A stretch of DNA of 64,000 nucleotides from a phage, in the sequence record PZ452581.1; one strand, written 5' to 3'. Below, one piece after another: positions 25,711-37,049 of this stretch; positions within the stretch are counted from its first letter, which is position 1; each line of letters opens with the position of its first letter. The notes under the pieces are model-generated. The model was given only the letters and a program-made list of their open reading frames with translations. It did not search any database and had not been told where the DNA came from. A program made the translations under genes and the position numbers.

Positions 25711-25763
25711 CCTCATGTTATGTCAGTAAAATTACTATAACACAACACGAGGGACTTGTAAAC
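25711..25763 (-). promoter_or_regulatory. Early promoter plus leader cassette, copy A
   Basis: Minus strand: -35 GTTTAC, 18-nt spacer ending in TGT, -10 TATAGT, then leader with GAGGA; 50 of 53 nt identical to copy B at 41471-41523. Confidence 0.6.
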
Positions 25764-27820
25764 TACATCTTGAACTTTTTAGACATTCCGTTGATGTTAA
25801 CCAAAGAAGCCAAGATTTGAGAAACTTCGTTTTCCTCTTCTTTTGATTCTTCTACAAGGAATTGATTAAACCCAGCCATTGGACGAACTTCACCAGTTTC
25901 CATCAGATGATCGCCATCATATATCGATTCTTCTAATTGTTCAGAAGGAGGAACGATTGTGCCTTCGATTAGATACTTGTTATAAGCAGTTTCTTTCATC
26001 ATGTACGTGCTTACTTTATTAATCTTCAACAAAATTCCACGCGGTAAAATAACTTCAGCTTCTGATGGAAATCCTGATAAATGACCTGGAACGATAACTT
26101 TAATTCGCTCAGCTCCTTTTATTACCATACCTACGCTAGTTTCAGCATCTTCATTAGCATATGCAGAATGACTACCCATATGCATTAAATCTTCAGCATC
26201 AACGGAACCTTCTCCTTCACCAGAAAATACTGCACCGGAATCATCTAGAGCCATATAGTTTTTACCATGCTCACCGAAGATATTTGGTTTAAGCGATGTT
26301 GATACGAAGTTCTTGAAATAGAACATTTTATTTTCAATATTATGACGTAAAGTTTTAAAGGTAACTTCTTGTCCACGGTAAAGTGTAGTTCCCGGAGGAA
26401 GAACTGATCCTTTGGCGAATGCAGAATCCAGCGTCTCGATGTGTTTAATAGCTCGTTCCATGTATTCTTCACGGGTAGAATCTGGTTTACCCAAGAGGAA
26501 CGAGTTCATTTCAACATATGAATCTGCACAATAATCTTCAATTACATCAGACTCAGCCTGAGTCAGTCCTTTTGGAGTTACTTCGGTGCTTGCGTATTCA
26601 TATGCCTGAGCAGCAGATTCATTAATCAATTTATAAATGCCATTCATGACAAATTGAATAATAGCTACCTTTTCGTCTGGCGTGGCTTTAGAACCTTTAA
26701 CTAAATCATTGATAATTTTCTTAATAACATCAAAGCTATTAGAAATATTAATGTCAGCGAGATCGCTCAAAATTTTATCGGTTTTATAATCAAAGAATTC
26801 TTTATTCTTTAAATATTCTTGAGAACCTTGATATGTTATATCGCTCTGCAGCTTGATAGATGGATCACGTAAACGTGCATGGGCCAATGCAATATGATTT
26901 CGGAAGCTTTCTAGTTCATAATCGTTAGATTTAAAACGAGAAGCACTTCTCATACCACCGATAGCTCCTTTGCCGAAGTTTGAACCAATCTGAATAACGC
27001 CAGAGTTCATTGGTCCTTCTGCTTTATATACCGGAACTTTAGATTCAAACTCTTGATATTTCTTGGCAGCGAAGCTATCGCCTTGAAGTGAAGCATCGAC
27101 AGTAGAGTATTGAGCTTGTGCTGCTAATCGACGACTAATTTTAGTTTTCTGAATAACAGCTTGATCCGTGCGCTTATCATTTTCTAAAGCAATAGAAGCA
27201 GCAACAGCAACAGCTTTAGGAACAGCATTACCTGTTTTAACATCTACATAAACATCACCAACCTTTGATTCAACTTTTGTGAATAACTCAGTTGAAATAG
27301 GAGGTACACCTGGAATGTCTTCTAAATTGGCATTTTTACGGTAAACCATAATATATGCATACTTTTTATCGTAATCCCAGATTTCCTTTAAAAGAACATA
27401 TCGACCTGCTCCTTTAGTACGTACTAAACGGTCAGCAATAACTTGCATTTGACGAGCTGCGCCATTTGTTTTACTTTTTAGTACGCGGAATAGGCATGCG
27501 TCAATTTTATACTGTTTCATTGTTTGAAGAGCAGTATCAAAAACCGCATTAATAACACCAATTGGATTTCCACCCAAGTTTTTAAGTTTAACTAATGATA
27601 GTTTCTCATTAACACCTATCATTACGATATGCATCATTTTATCGCCTGGCTTAACGTTTTTATTTGTATCACCGCCAGAGGTGTATGTACAAAATCTAAA
27701 TCCAGGAAGCACGCTTTCTTCACCGGCTTGAATAGCAAAAATTTGAGGTATTTTATGCTTGGGATTTAAGTTAACAACCGGCGCCGAAGCGCCGTCAAAT
27801 AATTCTGTAATAAGTTCCAT
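25763..27820 (-). CDS. Alt-like mono-ADP-ribosyltransferase, downstream paralog
   Basis: 685-aa ORF; N-terminal MELITELFD and first ~200 aa similar to the upstream 698-aa gene; C-terminal R-S-E ART motifs (YRGQ..., FVSTSL, EAEVILPRG). Confidence 0.8.
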   Translation of the reverse strand: MELITELFDGASAPVVNLNPKHKIPQIFAIQAGEESVLPGFRFCTYTSGGDTNKNVKPGDKMMHIVMIGVNEKLSLVKLKNLGGNPIGVINAVFDTALQTMKQYKIDACLFRVLKSKTNGAARQMQVIADRLVRTKGAGRYVLLKEIWDYDKKYAYIMVYRKNANLEDIPGVPPISTELFTKVESKVGDVYVDVKTGNAVPKAVAVAASIALENDKRTDQAVIQKTKISRRLAAQAQYSTVDASLQGDSFAAKKYQEFESKVPVYKAEGPMNSGVIQIGSNFGKGAIGGMRSASRFKSNDYELESFRNHIALAHARLRDPSIKLQSDITYQGSQEYLKNKEFFDYKTDKILSDLADINISNSFDVIKKIINDLVKGSKATPDEKVAIIQFVMNGIYKLINESAAQAYEYASTEVTPKGLTQAESDVIEDYCADSYVEMNSFLLGKPDSTREEYMERAIKHIETLDSAFAKGSVLPPGTTLYRGQEVTFKTLRHNIENKMFYFKNFVSTSLKPNIFGEHGKNYMALDDSGAVFSGEGEGSVDAEDLMHMGSHSAYANEDAETSVGMVIKGAERIKVIVPGHLSGFPSEAEVILPRGILLKINKVSTYMMKETAYNKYLIEGTIVPPSEQLEESIYDGDHLMETGEVRPMAGFNQFLVEESKEEENEVSQILASLVNINGMSKKFKM

Positions 27821-27823
27821 GAT

Positions 27824-29920
27824 TTATCCTTGAACGAACTTGTAAGGCATGTTTGTAATATCTATGCAAGATGCAATAATTCCAAGAGATGATTCTACTT
27901 TTTGTTTAACATTTGATGAAACAAATGATGCAAAGTCAACTCTGTCTTCTATTTCAATATCACCTGTCATTGCAACTACTTCACCAGTTTCCATTAGACG
28001 GTCACCGTCATAAATGACTGATTCGGTGAGTTCTTCCGTAGTCATAACTTCAGCTTGAATGAGTTTTGTATTATTAGATGTTGTTCCATCATTATTAGAA
28101 GCATCAGTTATTTTATTAACTTTGACCATCAATCCGCGTGGTAGAATTACTTCAGCTTCTGTTGCTATTCCGAGACTTCCTGGATATACAACATTAACTT
28201 TATGAGCTCCATCAATTGCCCATCCTATTTGAACTTTAACGTATTCAGGATTTTCTTTATACGCTCTTATTTCGTTTGGATTAATAGTTATTCCTTCTTC
28301 ATTTTTATCAACTGTCAATTCGTTACGAGCTTCTGGTTCTAAAAGACCAATACCAGCATGTGTAATTCCAAAACGTCCAAAAATGATAGGAGTTAAAGAA
28401 GTAGATACAAAATTTCTGAAATAGAATACTTTATTTTTAACTAATGCTTCGTATATAGGAGCAGTCATGCTTTGAGCACGATAAACTGTAATGCCTTCTG
28501 GTATACGGTCACCGTTTTCAAAAGCTGAATCTAAGTTATTTATAGCAGATTCAATTTCTTTTTCACTCATTACATCATATCGTTCTGGATTGTAACGACC
28601 CAAAAGAAGATTATTGATGTCAGTATATCCTGATCCACAATACTCTCTAATGCCGCGCTTTTGTGATGGAGTATATTTAGAACCATCACGGGCAATAGTA
28701 ATATCAATCATTGGACCTGCACCAATTCCAGAAAAGCTATAAATCATTCGTTTGAGGAATTTAGTTTTTGCCGCGTTCCAGGAATTTTTAGTTATTTCTT
28801 CCCAGACTTCATCTGGCTGTCCTTTACGTGTTTTATTATGTTTATCAAGCCATTTATCTTTGTATTCTTCAAAGAATTTATTAACAGCTGCTGCGTATTT
28901 CTCTAAACATTTTATTGAAGTAGTTGGTTCATTTTTGATCGCGTTAAAAATTACGTCTTTAATTTTTTCAGAAACTTCATTAACCTCACTTTTTGAAAAG
29001 AATTTATAGTCATAATGAAGTTCATCTGCAGTTCCTTCAGCAATAATTTTTGCTGCCTTAGTTTTAGAAGCCAATGAATTAATTCCAAGTTTCATTTCTT
29101 CTGCTTCGGGAATTAAAGGAGCGGTAGCAGGTTTATTGAAATTAGCTGCGGTAGATTCATACTTCTGGAATAATTCGCTTTCAAATCTAGAAGATTCTAA
29201 TGATTGACTTTGTGCAATTGCTCTACGGGAAATTTTAACTTTAACAATAACAGCTTGGTCAGAACGTTTATCATTTTCTTGCGCAATAGATGCAGCAATT
29301 GCCTCATTTTTAGTTACTTGAGCTCCAGTATCTTTATTGATATAAACATCACCGACCTTCGATTCAACTTTAGTAAAGAGCTCGGTGCTAATTTCCGGAA
29401 CTCCTGGAATGTCTTCTAGTGATACATTTTTGCGATGTATAAGAATATATGCATACTTTTTATCGTAATCCCAGAGTTCCTTAAGAAGGACGTATCTGCC
29501 ACCTGAACGACTGCGGATAAGTCTATCAGCAATAAGTTGAATTTGACGAGCTTGACCAGCAGTTTTAGACTTAAGAATACGGAGCATACAGGCATCAATT
29601 TTATACTGACGCATCGTCTGCATCGCAACAGTAAAAACTGAATTGATGTAATTAATTGGGCTTGGACCGAGACCTTTTAATTTAGCAATTGAACCTTTAG
29701 CAGTTAATGTAAAAGGAACAATATGCATCATTTTATCGCCCATCTTTAAATCGCGATTAGTATCACCTCCAGATGTATAAGTACATAAACGAAAACCTGG
29801 TTGTTCAATTGCGTCATCAACATGAACTGAAAAAATTTGTGGTATTTTCTTCTTTGGATTTAAGTTTGTAATCGGAAGAGTAGTATCTTCGTCAAATAAT
29901 TCTGTAATGAGTTCCATCAT
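27824..29920 (-). CDS. alt: Alt mono-ADP-ribosyltransferase (capsid-packaged, late promoter)
   Basis: 698-aa ORF; C-terminal ART motifs (YRAQ, FVSTSL, EAEVILPRG); own TATAAATA late promoter. Confidence 0.85.
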   Translation of the reverse strand: MMELITELFDEDTTLPITNLNPKKKIPQIFSVHVDDAIEQPGFRLCTYTSGGDTNRDLKMGDKMMHIVPFTLTAKGSIAKLKGLGPSPINYINSVFTVAMQTMRQYKIDACMLRILKSKTAGQARQIQLIADRLIRSRSGGRYVLLKELWDYDKKYAYILIHRKNVSLEDIPGVPEISTELFTKVESKVGDVYINKDTGAQVTKNEAIAASIAQENDKRSDQAVIVKVKISRRAIAQSQSLESSRFESELFQKYESTAANFNKPATAPLIPEAEEMKLGINSLASKTKAAKIIAEGTADELHYDYKFFSKSEVNEVSEKIKDVIFNAIKNEPTTSIKCLEKYAAAVNKFFEEYKDKWLDKHNKTRKGQPDEVWEEITKNSWNAAKTKFLKRMIYSFSGIGAGPMIDITIARDGSKYTPSQKRGIREYCGSGYTDINNLLLGRYNPERYDVMSEKEIESAINNLDSAFENGDRIPEGITVYRAQSMTAPIYEALVKNKVFYFRNFVSTSLTPIIFGRFGITHAGIGLLEPEARNELTVDKNEEGITINPNEIRAYKENPEYVKVQIGWAIDGAHKVNVVYPGSLGIATEAEVILPRGLMVKVNKITDASNNDGTTSNNTKLIQAEVMTTEELTESVIYDGDRLMETGEVVAMTGDIEIEDRVDFASFVSSNVKQKVESSLGIIASCIDITNMPYKFVQG

Positions 29921-30158: not shown

Positions 30159-31618
30159 AGACCAGTTACCTCATGAAAATCACCAAATACATCCTCGAAT
30201 GTATTAGCTTTAGTTTTATCTTCACGTAAACGAATCGCAATTGGAAGAAATAATTTTACGTAATCAGTGCGGCCATCAGATTTTAGCCAACCGTTGCATT
30301 CGCACTCTAGAATTTTTCCAATATAATAATTTTGGTTTTCCATAATGCGAGTACGGTCAAGTTCATGTGATTTTACACCGGCTTTATCTTTTAAGCCTGA
30401 ACCAGCATTTACTTTAATTTTTCCACACTCTGATTCAAGAATAAATCCACCTGCTTTAGTAGGGTCTTTACGGTGAGGATAAATTCCTACAATTTTTAAA
30501 TCAACATCAATTACTTCTTTAAATTTATAGAGATTTTTTGAACGAGCATTTTCCCACAATCCATCGGTATTTTTGAGAATAATACCTTCAAGACCTTGGT
30601 CAATATACTTTTTATAAATTACCTTAGCTTCATCTAGGTTATTTACTACCTGGTTTTCAATTAAAATTACTTTATCATATCCTGATGTCATTTGTTCTAG
30701 TTTAGAAAAACGTACATCATATTTTAAACGAAACGCCGGAAGACCGTATATTTCTACCAACGGGACATAATCCCAGACCTGAAACTTCATGCATTTGGCT
30801 TCTTTTTCGGAAATGGTTCCTTTTAAGGATTTATTGGCGATTCCATTAGAAGCAGTACGAGATTCCGCTACTTCGGCGAATTCTTTAGCTTTACTAATTT
30901 CAGGATAAGCATCAAAAAGAAAATCTAGGCCTTCTGGTTCCTTTTTAACTTGCTCATGGTATACCAATTCGCCATCAATTAACACACCTTCTGGATGAAT
31001 CTGGCGGGCTTCAGCAGTCATTTTGATTAACTCTTCCTTAAGAAGATCTAATCCTAGATATTCATTACCAGCTCGTGATAAAAGACGAACATCATCTAAT
31101 TCATCACCTCGGACTTCAGCAAAACACCGAGCTCCATCTGCTTTTAACTGTGCAAAGGCTGGAAACTTGATATTCTTATTAATGCCTTTTTCATCATAAG
31201 AACTTGCCAGCATTTGAGGTTGTTCAGGAATTAAACCTGGCCAAACTTTGTTTGCAATAGATACTGAAGCACCGCATTCAAGGTCTCGCATCATCACTCG
31301 ACGCAAAACTTCAACATCATCCTTTTTACCATCGGTGATATATCCAGTCAATTCCTCAATTGCAGCATTTCCGGTCAATTTCCGAGTAGCTAACGTGAAT
31401 TCAATGAAGTCAAGCATATCGGTAATGGTCAGCATTCCAAAACTCTGGGTAGCAATACCAGGTTTAGGCCATTTCTTGATATAATACTGTAACCCACGAG
31501 AATAAGTTAGACGATATACTCGTTTAAGCAATTCATTATCTTTATTCTTTTCAAGAATTGCTTGCTTCTGCTTAGTTGATCCAATAGATGCTATTTCATT
31601 CAGAATTTTAAGAATCAT
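30155..31618 (-). CDS. 30: ATP-dependent DNA ligase (gp30)
   Basis: 487-aa ORF; adenylation motif AQLKADGARC; matches T4 DNA ligase as recalled. Confidence 0.95.
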   Translation of the reverse strand: MILKILNEIASIGSTKQKQAILEKNKDNELLKRVYRLTYSRGLQYYIKKWPKPGIATQSFGMLTITDMLDFIEFTLATRKLTGNAAIEELTGYITDGKKDDVEVLRRVMMRDLECGASVSIANKVWPGLIPEQPQMLASSYDEKGINKNIKFPAFAQLKADGARCFAEVRGDELDDVRLLSRAGNEYLGLDLLKEELIKMTAEARQIHPEGVLIDGELVYHEQVKKEPEGLDFLFDAYPEISKAKEFAEVAESRTASNGIANKSLKGTISEKEAKCMKFQVWDYVPLVEIYGLPAFRLKYDVRFSKLEQMTSGYDKVILIENQVVNNLDEAKVIYKKYIDQGLEGIILKNTDGLWENARSKNLYKFKEVIDVDLKIVGIYPHRKDPTKAGGFILESECGKIKVNAGSGLKDKAGVKSHELDRTRIMENQNYYIGKILECECNGWLKSDGRTDYVKLFLPIAIRLREDKTKANTFEDVFGDFHEVTGL

Positions 31619-31884
31619 TGTTCATCCTTCAGAGTTTGATTTACAGCTCTATTATAAATCAATTCATCATTAAGCTCAGTCAAAGACCTATGATATGTAG
31701 TTCTAACTTTATTTCCTTGCATCCAGTGCTTGACGTAAATGAAACCTTGCTCTACACATTTTTTAAAAATTCGTTCGTCTTTTTGAGCTCGGAATTCTGG
31801 ATTGCATCTAAAAAATTGATTTACGTGACCGTAATCACGTGTAGTATTACCTTCATTTTCATAAATAGTGTGAACGACAAACAT
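31615..31884 (-). CDS. Hypothetical protein (30.1-like)
   Basis: 89-aa ORF, ATG start, overlapping neighbours. Confidence 0.55.
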   Translation of the reverse strand: MFVVHTIYENEGNTTRDYGHVNQFFRCNPEFRAQKDERIFKKCVEQGFIYVKHWMQGNKVRTTYHRSLTELNDELIYNRAVNQTLKDEQ

Positions 31885-32747
31885 TAGAATGCTCCTTGGA
31901 AAATATTATCACCACTAGTAAATCTATTAAAATACCCTGCATCACCAGGCTTAGTATAACTCCACGTATGGAATGGATTCATATGATACGGGTGTGTATA
32001 ATATGGATTATATGGATGTGTATAATATGGATTATACGGATTAAATCCAGGAGTTCTCCAGGTAGTGTTCCAACGAAAAGAATCGTTTTTAACCATCTTC
32101 TCAATTACATCTTTTATAGCTTTTTCACTATCAAAACTTTCTTTATTTTCCTTCGGTGAAAAAAGCTTATTTTCTACATCATTCCATGTATAAACTCGCT
32201 GAGCGGTTTTTGGAATATTGTCACGCTCTCCTCGCGCCATCCAATAAACAGGAACATTTAATATTTCACTCGCATGATCGCAATGGTGAGCGAGATCGTC
32301 AATGTAACAAATTACGTTATATTTCTCTTTTGCCTTTTTGAACAACTCTTCTTTTGAAGAATCATGACCACACATCATTACTTCTGAGAAGGCACCAGGA
32401 AAAAGAGCATTCAAATTAAATTGACGATTCAACAGAGCGTCAATAGAATCACCCAATGCTGTAACAGCTACAAAATTATAATCTTCTTTTAATTTGTTAA
32501 TTACACACAGTGCATCTTTATATGGAGACAAATAACGAATAAAATCTGATCGATTATATTTTTCAATTAACTTGACACCAAGTTCTTCATCACAATTAAA
32601 GAGTTTACCCGGAGAAATAAATTTCTCATCTTGGATCATTTTTAAAATATGTTCTAACGGAAGATTATATTTCTGAGCAAAATAAGGAAGGCCTGATTGC
32701 CAGCTTAAACATACTCCATCAATATCAGTCAAAATAGTAGGCTTCAT
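31884..32747 (-). CDS. HAD-superfamily hydrolase-like protein with C-terminal Tyr/Pro-rich repeat (30.2-like)
   Basis: 287-aa ORF; N-terminal ILTDIDGV resembles HAD motif I; C-terminal NPYNPYYTHPYNPYYTHPY repeat. Confidence 0.6.
   Translation of the reverse strand: MKPTILTDIDGVCLSWQSGLPYFAQKYNLPLEHILKMIQDEKFISPGKLFNCDEELGVKLIEKYNRSDFIRYLSPYKDALCVINKLKEDYNFVAVTALGDSIDALLNRQFNLNALFPGAFSEVMMCGHDSSKEELFKKAKEKYNVICYIDDLAHHCDHASEILNVPVYWMARGERDNIPKTAQRVYTWNDVENKLFSPKENKESFDSEKAIKDVIEKMVKNDSFRWNTTWRTPGFNPYNPYYTHPYNPYYTHPYHMNPFHTWSYTKPGDAGYFNRFTSGDNIFQGAF
31993..32040. repeat. Tandem direct repeat, 24-nt unit x2, inside the 30.2-like gene
   Basis: tgtgtataatatggattatatgga followed by tgtgtataatatggattatacgga (1 mismatch). 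Confidence 0.8.
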
Positions 32748-33202
32748 AGAGAGTCTCTTAATAGGTTTAACACATCAATAAATTCAGCTTCGGTTAGTAT
32801 TGTATCATCTTTTGTTAGACCACTAGCCATGCTGTGCTTCAAAACTTTTCCTTTCGAGGCTTGTAATGCATCACGAAAGCCCCTGTTTTGGATCGCTGCT
32901 TCAAAATATGCATTTGTGTATAATTCTTTCCACGCCGGGGAGTATCTTGAAAACGGAACTCCAAGCCAGAACAACGTGCCACGATCCTGAGCTCTAGCAT
33001 AAGACCTTCCAGCTTGTTGAGCGGCAAGCCCGGATAACCCAAATATACGTCTTTGCTGTTCAACATTTTTCACCTTACACCCTTGGAGGAATCCTTCGAG
33101 ACCTCCAAATTGAATACCATCCATAACGAAAGGCCATTGGGCGAAATTACTTAATGCACATGATGGCCATTTAAAATTGCTTCTTATCTCTAGCTCAGAC
33201 AT
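32744..33202 (-). CDS. NADAR (YbiA/DUF1768)-like protein, putative ADP-ribose processing enzyme (30.3-like)
   Basis: Motif LSNFAQWPFVMDGIQFGGLEGFLQGCK resembles the YbiA/NADAR core FSNFAAWP..VDG...SEHYFQAQK; track ORF starts at TTG 33208, first ATG is 33202. Confidence 0.6.
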   Translation of the reverse strand: MSELEIRSNFKWPSCALSNFAQWPFVMDGIQFGGLEGFLQGCKVKNVEQQRRIFGLSGLAAQQAGRSYARAQDRGTLFWLGVPFSRYSPAWKELYTNAYFEAAIQNRGFRDALQASKGKVLKHSMASGLTKDDTILTEAEFIDVLNLLRDSL

Positions 33203-33401
33203 TTTCAATACTTATAATTTCAACATCAGCCCAATGACCATAGCAAGGAAGACGAAATTCAACTGGCCAGTTAGGGTCCTTTTCTAATATAATAGACTGA
33301 ACTTGTGGCTCTTCATATTCATCGGTATACGGACCTTTATACGTTACTTTATATGTGACCTTAATGTACTGAATTCCAAAAATCTTATTAATTATATTCA
33401 T
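33195..33401 (-). CDS. Hypothetical protein
   Basis: 68-aa ORF, ATG start, operon context. Confidence 0.5.
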   Translation of the reverse strand: MNIINKIFGIQYIKVTYKVTYKGPYTDEYEEPQVQSIILEKDPNWPVEFRLPCYGHWADVEIISIENV

Positions 33402-33595
33402 ACTAATTCCTTTAATCCGTAAATAGGAGATAATTCATCACCCATACGAAGGTCTTCATTTCCATCTACCCAGGAAACAATATAAGCCTCTTTTATTTGA
33501 ATACCACTCCATTTAAATGGAGGTAGAACCTTAGAAATTAATCCAGGTATACCAACTCCCTTTAATTCAACAGTTTGACCTAAAAAGAATTTCAT
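33398..33595 (-). CDS. Hypothetical protein
   Basis: 65-aa ORF, ATG start, operon context. Confidence 0.5.
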   Translation of the reverse strand: MKFFLGQTVELKGVGIPGLISKVLPPFKWSGIQIKEAYIVSWVDGNEDLRMGDELSPIYGLKELV

Positions 33596-33882
33596 TAGAA
33601 CCTCATCTGAAAACCATGCGATTTAACATTACCGCCGCCAATATCAGAAATGTTAATTTCACGCGCAATTGAAGGGTCAATGTCAATTTCACGATTAAGT
33701 TTAGTGATAGCTAAAGTATCGCGGCCATTTACAGTACGGAACTCTAAAGGGCAGACTACATTAACATAGTTTTTAATCGATTCACTAGTAGGCTGCAAAT
33801 GAGCAGGAAGGTCTTTAGGTGCCTTAGAGAAAACCACTTCACAGAAATTTTTGCGGGTATCAAAATAAGTAGTCATAAACAT
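33595..33882 (-). CDS. Hypothetical protein
   Basis: 95-aa ORF, ATG preceded by GAGGA. Confidence 0.55.
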   Translation of the reverse strand: MFMTTYFDTRKNFCEVVFSKAPKDLPAHLQPTSESIKNYVNVVCPLEFRTVNGRDTLAITKLNREIDIDPSIAREINISDIGGGNVKSHGFQMRF

Positions 33883-33899
33883 AGTATTTTCCTCAGTAA

Positions 33900-33913
33900 G
33901 GGGCCGAAGCCCC
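33900..33913. other. Intergenic stem-loop GGGGC-CGAA-GCCCC
   Basis: GC hairpin between two minus-strand genes; the T-tract lies on the plus-strand side. Confidence 0.45.
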
Positions 33914-33923
33914 TCATTTTATT

Positions 33924-34289
33924 TTAAATATCAAATTCGTTAAGAACTACATCAAAGATTGCTTCCAGATGCTCAGGTTTAGCTCTGTTACTCAGAATAT
34001 GACGAATCCAAGTTTTAACCAGAAGCTTGCGATTAACGCCATTCCAGCAAGGATGAGTCCCTAAATCGCGTTGACGAAAATCATCATCCAATGCGATTTT
34101 AAAAGAAGAACCTTCTTTCGTGATTGAAACCGTGATGCCATTTTCAAATCGCATATAAACGTAGTTAGGAGTCATATACTGTTCAATTTCGCATACTGAT
34201 CCATTTTGATGTTTCCAAAGGCAGATAGTATCAATAGAACCTGCAATACCGTTAGAAACATATTTACGTTCAAAGTTGATGTAATTCAT
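33924..34289 (-). CDS. Hypothetical protein (30.7-like)
   Basis: 121-aa ORF, ATG start; downstream of an early promoter. Confidence 0.55.
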   Translation of the reverse strand: MNYINFERKYVSNGIAGSIDTICLWKHQNGSVCEIEQYMTPNYVYMRFENGITVSITKEGSSFKIALDDDFRQRDLGTHPCWNGVNRKLLVKTWIRHILSNRAKPEHLEAIFDVVLNEFDI

Positions 34290-34326
34290 TTTTATTCTCC
34301 GAGATGTTTAATTGCGGTACAAGTAT

Positions 34327-34355
34327 ATAATATCATATCCTGTACCAAAGTAAAC
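34327..34355 (-). promoter_or_regulatory. Early promoter (GTTTAC, 17 nt, TGA-TATTAT)
   Basis: Minus-strand GTTTAC, 17-nt spacer, extended -10 TGATATTAT; inverted repeat GGTACAGG/CTTGTACC brackets the -10. Confidence 0.55.
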
Positions 34356-34359
34356 TATT

Positions 34360-34728
34360 TTATGCAACTTTAATCCAATTATCTAAATTTAATTCACCTT
34401 TGGCTTTCATTTTTTCAATCAAGAGGTCAGCGGTAATACGACCATTTTGATACCACGTAACATCTTCAGAGTAACCAGTTTCTTTATCTTCATAAGTCTC
34501 GCAGCGAATTTTACCAAGAATCAAAGTTTTTAATTCGTATGTATCTCCAGTAAAAAAGTTAGTTAACATTATTTTCCAAGAGAAATCATCAGAAGGACCT
34601 TCAGGAGTCATACAATCTACGAATTCAAATTGTTCTTTGTATAAGTGCCACTGAAGTTCTTTAGTTTCGATAGCTTTATAGCCGTCGTGATCTTTACCTT
34701 TGATGTATGAGTTAAGATTGATTTTCAT
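34360..34728 (-). CDS. Hypothetical protein (30.8-like)
   Basis: 122-aa ORF, ATG start. Confidence 0.55.
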   Translation of the reverse strand: MKINLNSYIKGKDHDGYKAIETKELQWHLYKEQFEFVDCMTPEGPSDDFSWKIMLTNFFTGDTYELKTLILGKIRCETYEDKETGYSEDVTWYQNGRITADLLIEKMKAKGELNLDNWIKVA

Positions 34729-34815
34729 TTTATTCTCCTTTGTTTGTGTAAGATAATACTATCACAAAGGAACCATACTGTAAACAACTTTGTGCAATCT
34801 TTGGAAAATAAAAAA

Positions 34816-34833
34816 GGACTCCCGAAGGAGTCC
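34816..34833 (-). terminator. Rho-independent terminator (minus strand) GGACTCC-CGAA-GGAGTCC
   Basis: 7-bp stem; in minus orientation it is followed by UUUUUUAUUUU; lies directly after the stop of the 34839..35057 ORF. Confidence 0.65.
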
Positions 34834-34838
34834 TCAAC

Positions 34839-35057
34839 TTATGCTTTCTGCTTACCAAAACGAGAAGCATCATCTCGAAGAACCGCACGTGCTCGGCGCA
34901 TGATCTTCTCAACAGTTTGATTGATACGAGAGTTCGACCCACGCTTGTAACCAGCGCGTTTAGAATCACCAACTTTCTTTTCAACTGCTTTCTTTGCTTT
35001 AGCTTGTTTTGCCATTATAAATTCTCTTTTAAATGAAAATGCAGGACTTATTGGCAT
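34839..35057 (-). CDS. Small basic protein (K/R-rich)
   Basis: My translation of the reverse complement reproduces the track protein MPISPA...GKQKA, so the gene is on the minus strand although the track labels it +; an internal ATG at 35015 (MAKQAKAKK...) is an alternative start. Confidence 0.5.
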   Translation of the reverse strand: MPISPAFSFKREFIMAKQAKAKKAVEKKVGDSKRAGYKRGSNSRINQTVEKIMRRARAVLRDDASRFGKQKA

Positions 35058-35134
35058 TGCCTGCGAAAGCCCTCAAGGGGTACTTAGGTTTTGAATATTT
35101 ACCGACAGGATAACCATAAACCTCGTCAACATAA

Positions 35135-35383
35135 TTACTTCAGTGTTACCACAAAGTGACGAACTGCTTTTCGTGCAGCAGAAGCCAGAGGCTTAGCATA
35201 TTTAAGTTCATCTTTTTCCTGAAGCTCAGCAGCTAGTGCAGTTTGAGCAGGATTCAGATGTTTGAAATAACGCAGGATTTCAAGAGCTTCGGCTTCAACA
35301 TCAATAGATGCGCCATAGTTTTCGTGACCATTATTCCATGCGTTTCGTTGCAGTTCAAGAGCGTGTTGTAATTGTTTAATCAT
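35135..35383 (-). CDS. rIII: rIII lysis-inhibition accessory protein
   Basis: 82-aa ORF; size and position as T4 rIII. Confidence 0.8.
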   Translation of the reverse strand: MIKQLQHALELQRNAWNNGHENYGASIDVEAEALEILRYFKHLNPAQTALAAELQEKDELKYAKPLASAARKAVRHFVVTLK

Positions 35384-35522
35384 TTAAAAATTCTCGTTAG
35401 AGATTAAAACTCGGTAGTCACGTTCTTCTGAATTTCATCTTCTTTCGACAGATCTCTCAGTTGTAGACTACCACATAGAATTGTTCGGTTAACTTATTAT
35501 TCCGACACCCAATTCATATTAT

Positions 35523-35530
35523 TATTTATA
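35523..35530 (-). promoter_or_regulatory. Late promoter TATAAATA (minus strand) downstream of gene 31, upstream of rIII
   Basis: Plus-strand TATTTATA abutting the gene 31 stop, about 140 nt upstream of rIII. Confidence 0.45.
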
Positions 35531-35866
35531 TCACTTATAAAGACACGGAATAGCTTTATAGTGACAGGTAACAAATTTTTGTTTAATTTCTTTTGGCTTC
35601 TTAAGACCCAGAGCTACAAAAGGATGTGGAACGTTTCGAATTTGACCAACTGGAAGAGAAGTCAAATCACCAACTTCACAGAAACCTTCAGGAACATCAG
35701 GACCAACAGAGTGAACTACACACAGTTCAGGAACTTCACCTTGGACACGTTTACCAATAATAAGTCCTGATTCTGTAACTTCTTCATCACCGGCTTGTGC
35801 AGGTTCAGAAACTAAAATAACATATTCACCGACAGCACGAATTGGTAGCTGTTGTACTTCAGACAT
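35531..35866 (-). CDS. 31: Co-chaperonin (GroES-like, gp31)
   Basis: 111-aa ORF; size and position as T4 gp31. Confidence 0.88.
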
Positions 35867-35922
35867 CGTTTTTCCTTTTTGTTAACAGATGAATTAATAA
35901 TAACAAATAATTCTTAAAGCAT

Positions 35923-36231
35923 TTATTTACCAATAAATTGAAGCAAATGCTCAACTTTCATGCCATTAACGGAAATCAATTTGTCAATAGAAAAACCTCG
36001 CCATGCACCGAGTTCAACATCAAATATCGGAATCATATCAGTAGATTCTTTCCGAGTAGATTCAGTCAATTTACCGGTTTGCATGGTTGGCATAAAGTCT
36101 GCATCACGAGTACCTTTCATAGTACGAATAGTACCATCAGACTTTTCAAAAACCACGTTTGAAATACCCATGGACAATTTAGTTTTCAAAATTTCACGAA
36201 TTGCTACTTTCTGTTCAGTTGTCAGTTTCAT
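35923..36231 (-). CDS. Hypothetical protein (31.1-like)
   Basis: 102-aa ORF, ATG start. Confidence 0.55.
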   Translation of the reverse strand: MKLTTEQKVAIREILKTKLSMGISNVVFEKSDGTIRTMKGTRDADFMPTMQTGKLTESTRKESTDMIPIFDVELGAWRGFSIDKLISVNGMKVEHLLQFIGK

Positions 36232-36468
36232 TTATTTACCTATTACAGTTTTAATATGAGTTGTTCCACGTTCTTTAAGAGTGGAAAGCAACTTTTGGCA
36301 TTTTTCTAAATCAGATTTCCAACTATACGGCCTATCAATACAAACCCATTCTGACTTATAATACTGTTTCCATTTAGAGAAAAAATATTTCTTATACTCT
36401 ACAGCAAATGAAATGTTCTCGTTAGAATAAGAACTAATTGCTGTGAGCTGTACCAAACGAAATTTCAT
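36232..36468 (-). CDS. Hypothetical protein (31.2-like)
   Basis: 78-aa ORF, start overlaps the cd stop. Confidence 0.55.
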   Translation of the reverse strand: MKFRLVQLTAISSYSNENISFAVEYKKYFFSKWKQYYKSEWVCIDRPYSWKSDLEKCQKLLSTLKERGTTHIKTVIGK

Positions 36469-37049
36469 TATTCACCACAGAATTCGTTGATATTTTCCCA
36501 ATTTAACTTATTTAAGTTTTTCTTAGGAACATTAAACACTTCAATACCCGCATTTCGCAGAATATCATCCCAGCCAGGTTTATTTTTATCGTATGTTTCG
36601 CAATAAACCAGCTTTTTAATTCCAGATTGAGCTATCGCTTTTGCACAATCTGGGCAAGGAGAAAGTGTTACATACATAGTAGCACCTTCAATTGAAGAAC
36701 CATTTCGCGCAGCAAACAAAATCGCATTTAGTTCAGCATGAATTTCATTTTTAGACGACCACTCAGAGTGAGCACTACGATGTTCTTTCGCCAAGACAAA
36801 ACGATCAGTTGAACCAAATGATACACATTCAGGCTTATGACCTTGAATGATAGTATGTTTAGGCTTATTCAGCAACCAACCTTGCTCAGCAGCATAATCG
36901 CAGCAATTCACACCCCCGGCAGGTGAACCATTATATCCGGTAGAAATAATACGTCCATTCTTTTCAATTACCGCTCCTACCTTCCAGGAGCAACATTTTG
37001 ATTCTTGTGATACTAAATATGCAATTTGAAGTACTGTACTCGCTTTCAT
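36468..37049 (-). CDS. cd: dCMP deaminase
   Basis: 193-aa ORF with zinc-binding deaminase motifs HAELNAI and PCPDC. Confidence 0.93.
   Translation of the reverse strand: MKASTVLQIAYLVSQESKCCSWKVGAVIEKNGRIISTGYNGSPAGGVNCCDYAAEQGWLLNKPKHTIIQGHKPECVSFGSTDRFVLAKEHRSAHSEWSSKNEIHAELNAILFAARNGSSIEGATMYVTLSPCPDCAKAIAQSGIKKLVYCETYDKNKPGWDDILRNAGIEVFNVPKKNLNKLNWENINEFCGE

Follow-up and report, generated by a model that had tools for sequence, protein, structure and literature searches.

What is the function of the short reading frame, located on the minus strand of a phage DNA of 64,000 nucleotides (the whole stretch that was analysed, here called the window), whose product carries the motif LSNFAQWPFVMDGIQFGGLEGFLQGCK, and could this product undo the ADP-ribosylation of DNA and so help the phage against a host defence? 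From the letters only it had been proposed that a NADAR protein reversing guanine ADP-ribosylation in DNA is encoded here, and this proposal agrees with published experiments on the T4 protein as well as with our own fold and profile tests. With high confidence we assign the gene to adfN, coding for a single-domain NADAR enzyme that would reverse the guanine ADP-ribosylation of DNA by DarT1 and thereby defeat the defence system DarTG1. adfN (gp30.3) is already known and experimentally characterised, i.e., it is not a new gene, and the value of the present work lies in annotation rather than in discovery. Homologues are encoded in 1511 phage records, and most public T4-like genomes label the gene as “hypothetical protein”; in Escherichia phage EAWsc9 (PQ341120; L004 1501-1959) it is unannotated, and in Rhizobium phage P10VF (L007 4004-4465) it bears the label “putative homing endonuclease”. 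The presence of adfN predicts growth of a therapeutic or environmental T4-like phage on hosts carrying DarTG1. Here a motif of 27 residues, read from sequence alone, pointed to a real and experimentally validated counter-defence function.

The mechanically called reading frame spans 32744..33208 on the minus strand, comprises 154 aa from a TTG and contains LSNFAQWPFVMDGIQFGGLEGFLQGCK. The frame is thus real and holds the peptide quoted originally; only its start has to be moved. The true start is almost certainly the ATG at 33202 and not the TTG at 33208, because the T4 CDS has 459 nt (MSELEIRS start) and the published cloning primers for the T4 gene begin with ATG TCT GAG, encoding MSELEIRSNF... 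(PMC11825919). The two extra codons TTG AAA (33203..33208, minus strand) are probably untranslated, and the adfN CDS accordingly covers 32744..33202 (minus strand, 152 aa plus stop). An ungapped alignment across 152 aa reveals that 149 residues (98%) are identical to T4 gp30.3, all three differences (R11K, K106R, I124M) being conservative, and the protein of phage EO1 is 100% identical to the adfN product. At the DNA level the 2-kb region around adfN matches 682 phage records, the best of them being Escherichia phage vB_EcoM_P8 with 98.3%. The source of the window is a T4-like Tequatrovirus, a relative of T4 rather than T4. The protein matches Pfam family PF08010 (Phage_30_3) over profile positions 1-138 of 138 (E=8.2e-70, 233 bits, cut-off 36) and phrog_652 (E=2e-51), a group that PHROGs lists as “unknown function”.

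Direct sequence searches are blind to the relationship with NADAR enzymes. At E <= 1 the adfN product was not recognised by PF08719, the NADAR model of Pfam (DUF1768), and PF08010 was its sole Pfam match; a search of NCBIfam yielded no match, and phmmer against the PDB sequences returned one chance-level match and nothing else. Therefore, a family profile or the fold was needed to establish the link. A profile search of the sequence library collected 1450 clusters (50% identity) at E <= 1e-3, from which a family alignment of 60 sequences (A2) was drawn; a smaller alignment (A1) holds 10 sequences. Comparison of A2 with full-length E. coli YbiA by hhalign gave a probability of 94.9% (E=4.1e-8, 134 columns), and YbiA was also the top match (E=0.0023) in an hmmsearch of the A2 profile against the PDB. 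One family member, P0093, shows a sub-threshold match to PF08719 in the equivalent region (E=3.8e-4, 21 bits vs a cut-off of 35). In the fold comparison the adfN product exhibits the YbiA-like fold of the NADAR superfamily; Pfam keeps the phage clade (PF08010) separate from the NADAR model PF08719. The resemblance of LSNFAQWPFVMDGIQFGGLEGFLQGCK to the YbiA/NADAR core, from which the sequence-only reading had started, is borne out by the family profile, which aligns the motif with FSNFAAWPIKVDGKTWPTSEHYFQAQK of E. coli YbiA. The check recommended there, a search with the NADAR/DUF1768 model, came out negative at E <= 1; homology to YbiA was nonetheless found with the family profile.

The motif LSNFAQWPFVMDGIQFGGLEGFLQGCK comprises residues 17-43 (33074..33154, minus strand) and holds the catalytic residues E36 (codon 33095-33097, minus strand) and K43 (codon 33074-33076, minus strand). 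Over 60 family members E36 is invariant and K43 is conserved in at least 90%, and in profile alignments the two residues stand opposite YbiA E48 and K55. They show the arrangement that is expected of a NADAR enzyme, namely a first-helix Glu and a Lys seven residues apart (E43/K50 in PnNADAR, E48/K55 in YbiA). In the last β-strand a histidine, H123 (codon 32834..32836, minus strand), replaces the Glu of the YbiA family or the Asp of the DarT1-associated family. H123 is located within the predicted last strand (residues 120-123) of the structure model, is invariant in the 10 sequences of A1, conserved in at least 90% of the 60 sequences of A2, and marks the gp30.3 subfamily. The replacement of Glu or Asp by His in the phage gp30.3 subfamily is stated in the literature (PMC11125620, PMC11543638). 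In the hhalign alignment of A2 with YbiA H123 is offset by one to two positions from YbiA E125, so that the equivalence of His and Glu rests on the published structure-based alignments. Since His123 is found where the YbiA family (sensu de Souza and Aravind) has its last-strand glutamate, the adfN product is a NADAR enzyme outside the YbiA family, and the term “YbiA-like” applies to its fold only. A missing NADAR profile match or the loss of the conserved catalytic glutamate had been named beforehand as grounds for giving up the assignment. Of the glutamates, E36 is kept and the last-strand one of YbiA-type NADARs is a histidine by nature; with the silence of PF08719 and this histidine, a true call would have been wrongly discarded. 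The C-terminal α-helix (residues 138-151; 32750..32791, minus strand) is intact according to the model and the full-length alignment to T4. In RB69 the allele is truncated by 15 residues and lacks this helix, which accompanies sensitivity to DarTG1 (PMC11825919).

The activity of the T4 protein has been described in several studies. Johannesman et al. (bioRxiv 2024, Nat Commun 2025; PMC11825919) renamed gp30.3 as AdfN (anti-DarT factor NADAR). In their work crosses of T2/T4 with RB69 mapped the resistance against DarTG1 to gene 30.3, deletion of adfN rendered T4 and T2 about 4 logs more sensitive to DarTG1, and ectopic adfN restored RB69 on DarTG1; the gene is necessary and sufficient for T-even resistance. 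Purified AdfN strips ADP-ribose from guanine of DarT1-modified DNA in vitro, for which E36 and K43 are needed, most of the rescue activity is gone in the mutants E36A and K43A, and no association of AdfN with DarT1 was seen in a bacterial two-hybrid assay. Protection by AdfN remains in T4-GT7 with its unmodified DNA, and DarTG2 is not countered. In the published phylogeny the gp30.3 proteins are closest to DarT1-associated NADARs (PMC11825919). Schuller et al. (2023) described the reversal of DarT1 guanine ADP-ribosylation by NADARs and drew attention to the His variant of phages (PMC11543638), and according to a paper in Toxins (2024) purified T4 gp30.3 hydrolyses guanosine-ADPr, not thymidine-ADPr (PMC11125620). 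In the HIDEN-SEQ preprint (2025, transposon sequencing) 30.3/adfN is non-essential on K-12 and its insertions are lost on DarTG1: in the comparison of T4 insertions between control and DarTG1 (Data S6) the value for 30.3 falls from 261.0 to 0.7 (log2FC -7.25, adjusted p 0). In the same data adfA (61.2) shows no significant change (log2FC -0.34), and the macrodomain gene tk.4 (AdfM) is presented as anti-DarTG2 factor.

These data suggest the following mechanism. The DarT1 toxin of the host DarTG1 system would ADP-ribosylate guanines in the infecting phage DNA and thereby block its replication; AdfN would cleave the N-glycosidic bond between guanine and ADP-ribose, by which replicable DNA would be restored. 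In the NADAR pocket E36 and K43 would contact the ADP-ribose, with H123 in place of the last-strand Glu or Asp. AdfN could thus be regarded as an orphan, phage-borne counterpart of the DarG1 antitoxin. Our analysis establishes the identity with T4 AdfN, the family membership, the NADAR fold, the conserved catalytic residues and the intact C-terminus; all features of recognised importance are present in this copy. The guanine-ADP-ribose glycohydrolase activity published for the T4 protein may be extended to the present allele by identity, and we infer that this 98%-identical copy behaves like T4 AdfN. The idea that a phage copy could counter DarTG-type defence holds for DarTG1, i.e., for guanine, and fails for DarT2/DarG, as DarTG2 is unaffected and thymidine-ADPr is not hydrolysed in the published work; because of this inactivity a negative result has to be expected from plating on DarT2/DarG hosts, as it had been suggested. 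AdfN(T4) does not neutralise DarT1 in uninfected cells and helps T5 and Bas25 weakly (PMC11825919). This lack of rescue in uninfected cells and the weak rescue of non-T-even phages mean that a mechanism with the enzyme alone is incomplete in vivo, and a T-even co-factor was proposed by Johannesman et al. (PMC11825919). Full function of AdfN is confined to T-even infection.

adfN belongs to a head-to-tail overlapping array of non-essential genes that extends from 30.7 to 30.1 and is located upstream of DNA ligase; in the T4 annotation the order of this array and the overlap between 30.4 and adfN are identical. The start of adfN overlaps the stop of 30.4 by 8 nt (ATGTCTGA, 33195..33202, minus strand; from the ORF coordinates and the sequence), and no Shine-Dalgarno-like sequence was seen upstream of the adfN ATG. 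For these reasons translation of adfN is likely coupled to that of 30.4. A scan for sigma-70 promoters and terminators in 31500-36500 found sites no commoner than in shuffled sequences and none directly upstream of adfN. Gene 30.4 (33195..33401, minus strand) directly upstream of adfN encodes 68 aa and belongs to phrog_2042; its homologues are detectable only within Tevenvirinae, with 37-43% identity in VR5 and EAWsc9. In HIDEN-SEQ Data S6 insertions in 30.4 show a partial, yet significant depletion on DarTG1 (375.9 to 108.0, log2FC -1.79, adjusted p 0.014). The simplest reading of this depletion is a polar effect on adfN. There is a slim chance that gp30.4 is instead a T-even-specific partner required by AdfN for full activity in vivo, and, if true, such an accessory role would answer the question of the AdfN co-factor. 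Inside adfN an alternative-frame ORF of 75 aa, 30.3' (32839..33066, minus strand), is annotated in T4. It is open in four phages, T4, VR5 and EAWsc9 among them, whose nucleotide identity is about 80%. In the overlap with 30.3' the third-codon positions of adfN are under no extra constraint (26/76 diverged vs 12/45 in the 5' flank), and since divergence is not lower there, we see no evidence of selection on 30.3'.

The downstream neighbour, gene 30.2 (31884..32747, minus strand), overlaps with its start the stop of adfN by 4 nt. Residues 1-195 of gp30.2 are modelled as a HAD-superfamily domain resembling 5'(3')-deoxyribonucleotidases with pLDDT above 90. The domain displays a Rossmannoid fold with motif I DxD, motif II Thr/Ser, motif III Lys and motif IV DD; the invariant residues of its family are D8, D10, K132, D150 and D151, and conservation of T96 reaches at least 90%. 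A Pfam search with gp30.2 found no family at E <= 1. Foldseek with the gp30.2 model matched HAD hydrolases, 5'(3')-deoxyribonucleotidases among them, with a probability of 1.0 (top 2jao, E=1.9e-8), and the best match of the family profile among the PDB sequences was likewise the 5'(3')-deoxyribonucleotidase. Residues 200-287 form a disordered tail rich in Pro, Tyr and Asn (NPYNPYYTHPYNPYYTHPY...), whose pLDDT is lower than 50 beyond about residue 228; the C-terminal third (31884-32290 of the window, minus strand) contains an extra repeat of 10 residues relative to T4, and in many homologues (196-220 aa) the tail is missing or much shorter. In Vibrio phage phi-ST2 (L008 4007-4958) a gene with the Pfam domain NT5C (5'(3')-deoxyribonucleotidase-like) directly follows the adfN homologue and overlaps its 3' end. 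This pair has the late sigma factor gene on one side and gp47/gp46 on the other, surroundings that are not related to the T4 ligase block, and its arrangement parallels the adfN-30.2 pairing of T4-like phages; the match of the NT5C protein to the gp30.2 profile is confined to the 24 residues of the motif-I region (hhalign probability 62%).

From this neighbourhood it could be concluded that AdfN and gp30.2 form a two-enzyme module, in which the translationally coupled gp30.2 might remove the ADP-ribose set free by AdfN or a phosphorylated product. The true HAD fold, in which the catalytic set DxD...K...DD is intact, the 4-nt overlap of the two genes, the retention of the adfN-30.2 pair in Acj61, Slopekvirus, Dhakavirus and Gaprivervirus, the overlapping NT5C gene of phi-ST2 in another genomic context and the T-even co-factor postulated by Johannesman et al. 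(PMC11825919) are all in line with such a module. Nevertheless, we consider it very improbable. T4 insertions in 30.2 undergo no depletion on DarTG1 (271.5 to 249.8, log2FC -0.12, p 0.61; Data S6), which largely refutes the module for DarTG1; AdfN by itself is active in vitro (PMC11825919, PMC11125620), and the shared ligase-30.x synteny block accounts for the conserved adjacency. Moreover, in a set of 86 divergent loci of adfN, of which 80 were taken from IMG/VR and six from GenBank phages, a 30.2-family gene occurs within 5 kb of adfN in 15 only, each time on the same strand, plus one NT5C. By non-depletion together with this weak co-occurrence gp30.2 was rejected as functional partner of AdfN; of the earlier suggestion about this neighbour the HAD assignment stands and the functional link does not, 30.2 being dispensable against DarTG1. 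The probability is practically nil that AdfN neutralises DarT1 by binding the toxin rather than by catalysis, as might be imagined by analogy with AdfA, another anti-DarT factor, whose R164H variant binds DarT1: the two-hybrid result without AdfN-DarT1 association, the impaired catalytic mutants and the removal of ADPr from DNA in vitro (all PMC11825919) refute it with published data. A housekeeping role as YbiA-type N-glycosidase that clears reactive intermediates of the riboflavin pathway and takes no part in defence evasion would fit the fold and the E/K motif common to AdfN and E. coli YbiA, and RefSeq labels YbiA as N-glycosidase. Yet the last-strand Glu that is the signature of the YbiA family is His in AdfN, the published phylogeny places the gp30.3 proteins next to DarT1-associated NADARs, and the DarTG1 phenotype together with the directly demonstrated de-ADP-ribosylation of DNA (PMC11825919, PMC11125620, HIDEN-SEQ) already contradicts this role, which is thus hardly conceivable.

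A small but real probability has to be assigned to the reading that the main natural substrate of AdfN is not DarT1-modified DNA but another ADP-ribosylated or N-glycosidic compound, DarTG1 being only one tested case. With an equally low likelihood such substrates could arise from other DNA/RNA ADP-ribosyltransferase defences that are directed at guanine or cytidine, or be nucleic acids collaterally modified by the phage's own Alt, ModA or ModB. In favour of a broader range, guanine-ADPr is also cleaved by NADARs from different contexts, a 2026 paper reports that cytidine-ADPr is reversed by NADARs (PMC12945103), the subfamily-specific His123 may alter specificity (PMC11825919), and the family is large (1450 clusters at 50% identity) with non-phage members fused to unrelated domains. 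Furthermore, two Alt-type ADP-ribosyltransferases are encoded nearby. The T4 Alt orthologue (27824-29920, minus strand, 698 aa) and a second Alt-type paralogue (25763-27820, minus strand, 685 aa), both with Pfam PF03496, are full-length proteins in tandem and 42% identical to each other; a distance of about 3 kb had been reported before, and the nearest of these genes indeed ends at 29920, 2.8 kb from adfN. The first is 70% identical to T4 Alt overall, its N-terminal ~250 residues being nearly identical and its catalytic half diverged, and at the place of the second T4 has only the short remnants alt.-1 and alt.-2. Against another main substrate stand the size and the specificity of the DarTG1 phenotype (plaque assays, 4 logs; log2FC -7.25), and adfN is non-essential in HIDEN-SEQ when DarTG1 is absent, which means that under laboratory conditions it is not needed against self-inflicted ADP-ribosylation. 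Insertions in alt likewise have no DarTG1 phenotype (log2FC -0.01; Data S6); because they are unaffected, the proximity of adfN and alt is T4 synteny with no link shown.

The assignment as a NADAR enzyme directed against DarTG1 can finally be placed among the known systems. T4 gp30.3, i.e., AdfN itself, shares with the product described here the syntenic position (30.4-30.3-30.2-30.1-ligase), the length, E36, K43, H123 and the C-terminal helix, and differs from it by the exchanges R11K, K106R and I124M; the present phage is a relative of T4. More distant are E. coli YbiA and the Phytophthora NADAR (PF08719; PDB 2b3w, 8bau), with 18-21% sequence identity; AdfN lacks a direct PF08719 match, has His instead of the last-strand Glu of the YbiA family, and acts in counter-defence, in contrast with the clean-up of riboflavin intermediates. 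The phage-type NADAR domain is also found in larger proteins: in the metagenome representatives P0093, P0126, P0098, P0053 and P0083 gp30.3-type domains have as fusion partners BspA-type leucine-rich repeats, prolipoprotein diacylglyceryl transferase, GDSL lipase and α/β-hydrolase, and by such fusions the “phage” clade of NADARs extends beyond single-domain phage proteins. Compared with DarG1, the DarT1-associated NADAR antitoxin of the BC4488 family (e.g., the Geobacter lovleyi NADAR, PDB 8bat), AdfN has no N-terminal extension, and its last strand carries His where DarG1 has Asp; unlike DarG1 it is not encoded beside a DarT and cannot substitute for DarG1 in uninfected cells. The NADARs of Bas32 and Bas60 and the macrodomain protein AdfM (T4 tk.4) have no gene in this part of the window; they are, like AdfN, phage-borne ADP-ribosylglycohydrolases that undo DarT modification. 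AdfM differs as a macrodomain directed at DarTG2 and thus at thymidine, whereas the Bas32 and Bas60 enzymes belong to other NADAR clades and, unlike AdfN, are active in uninfected cells too.
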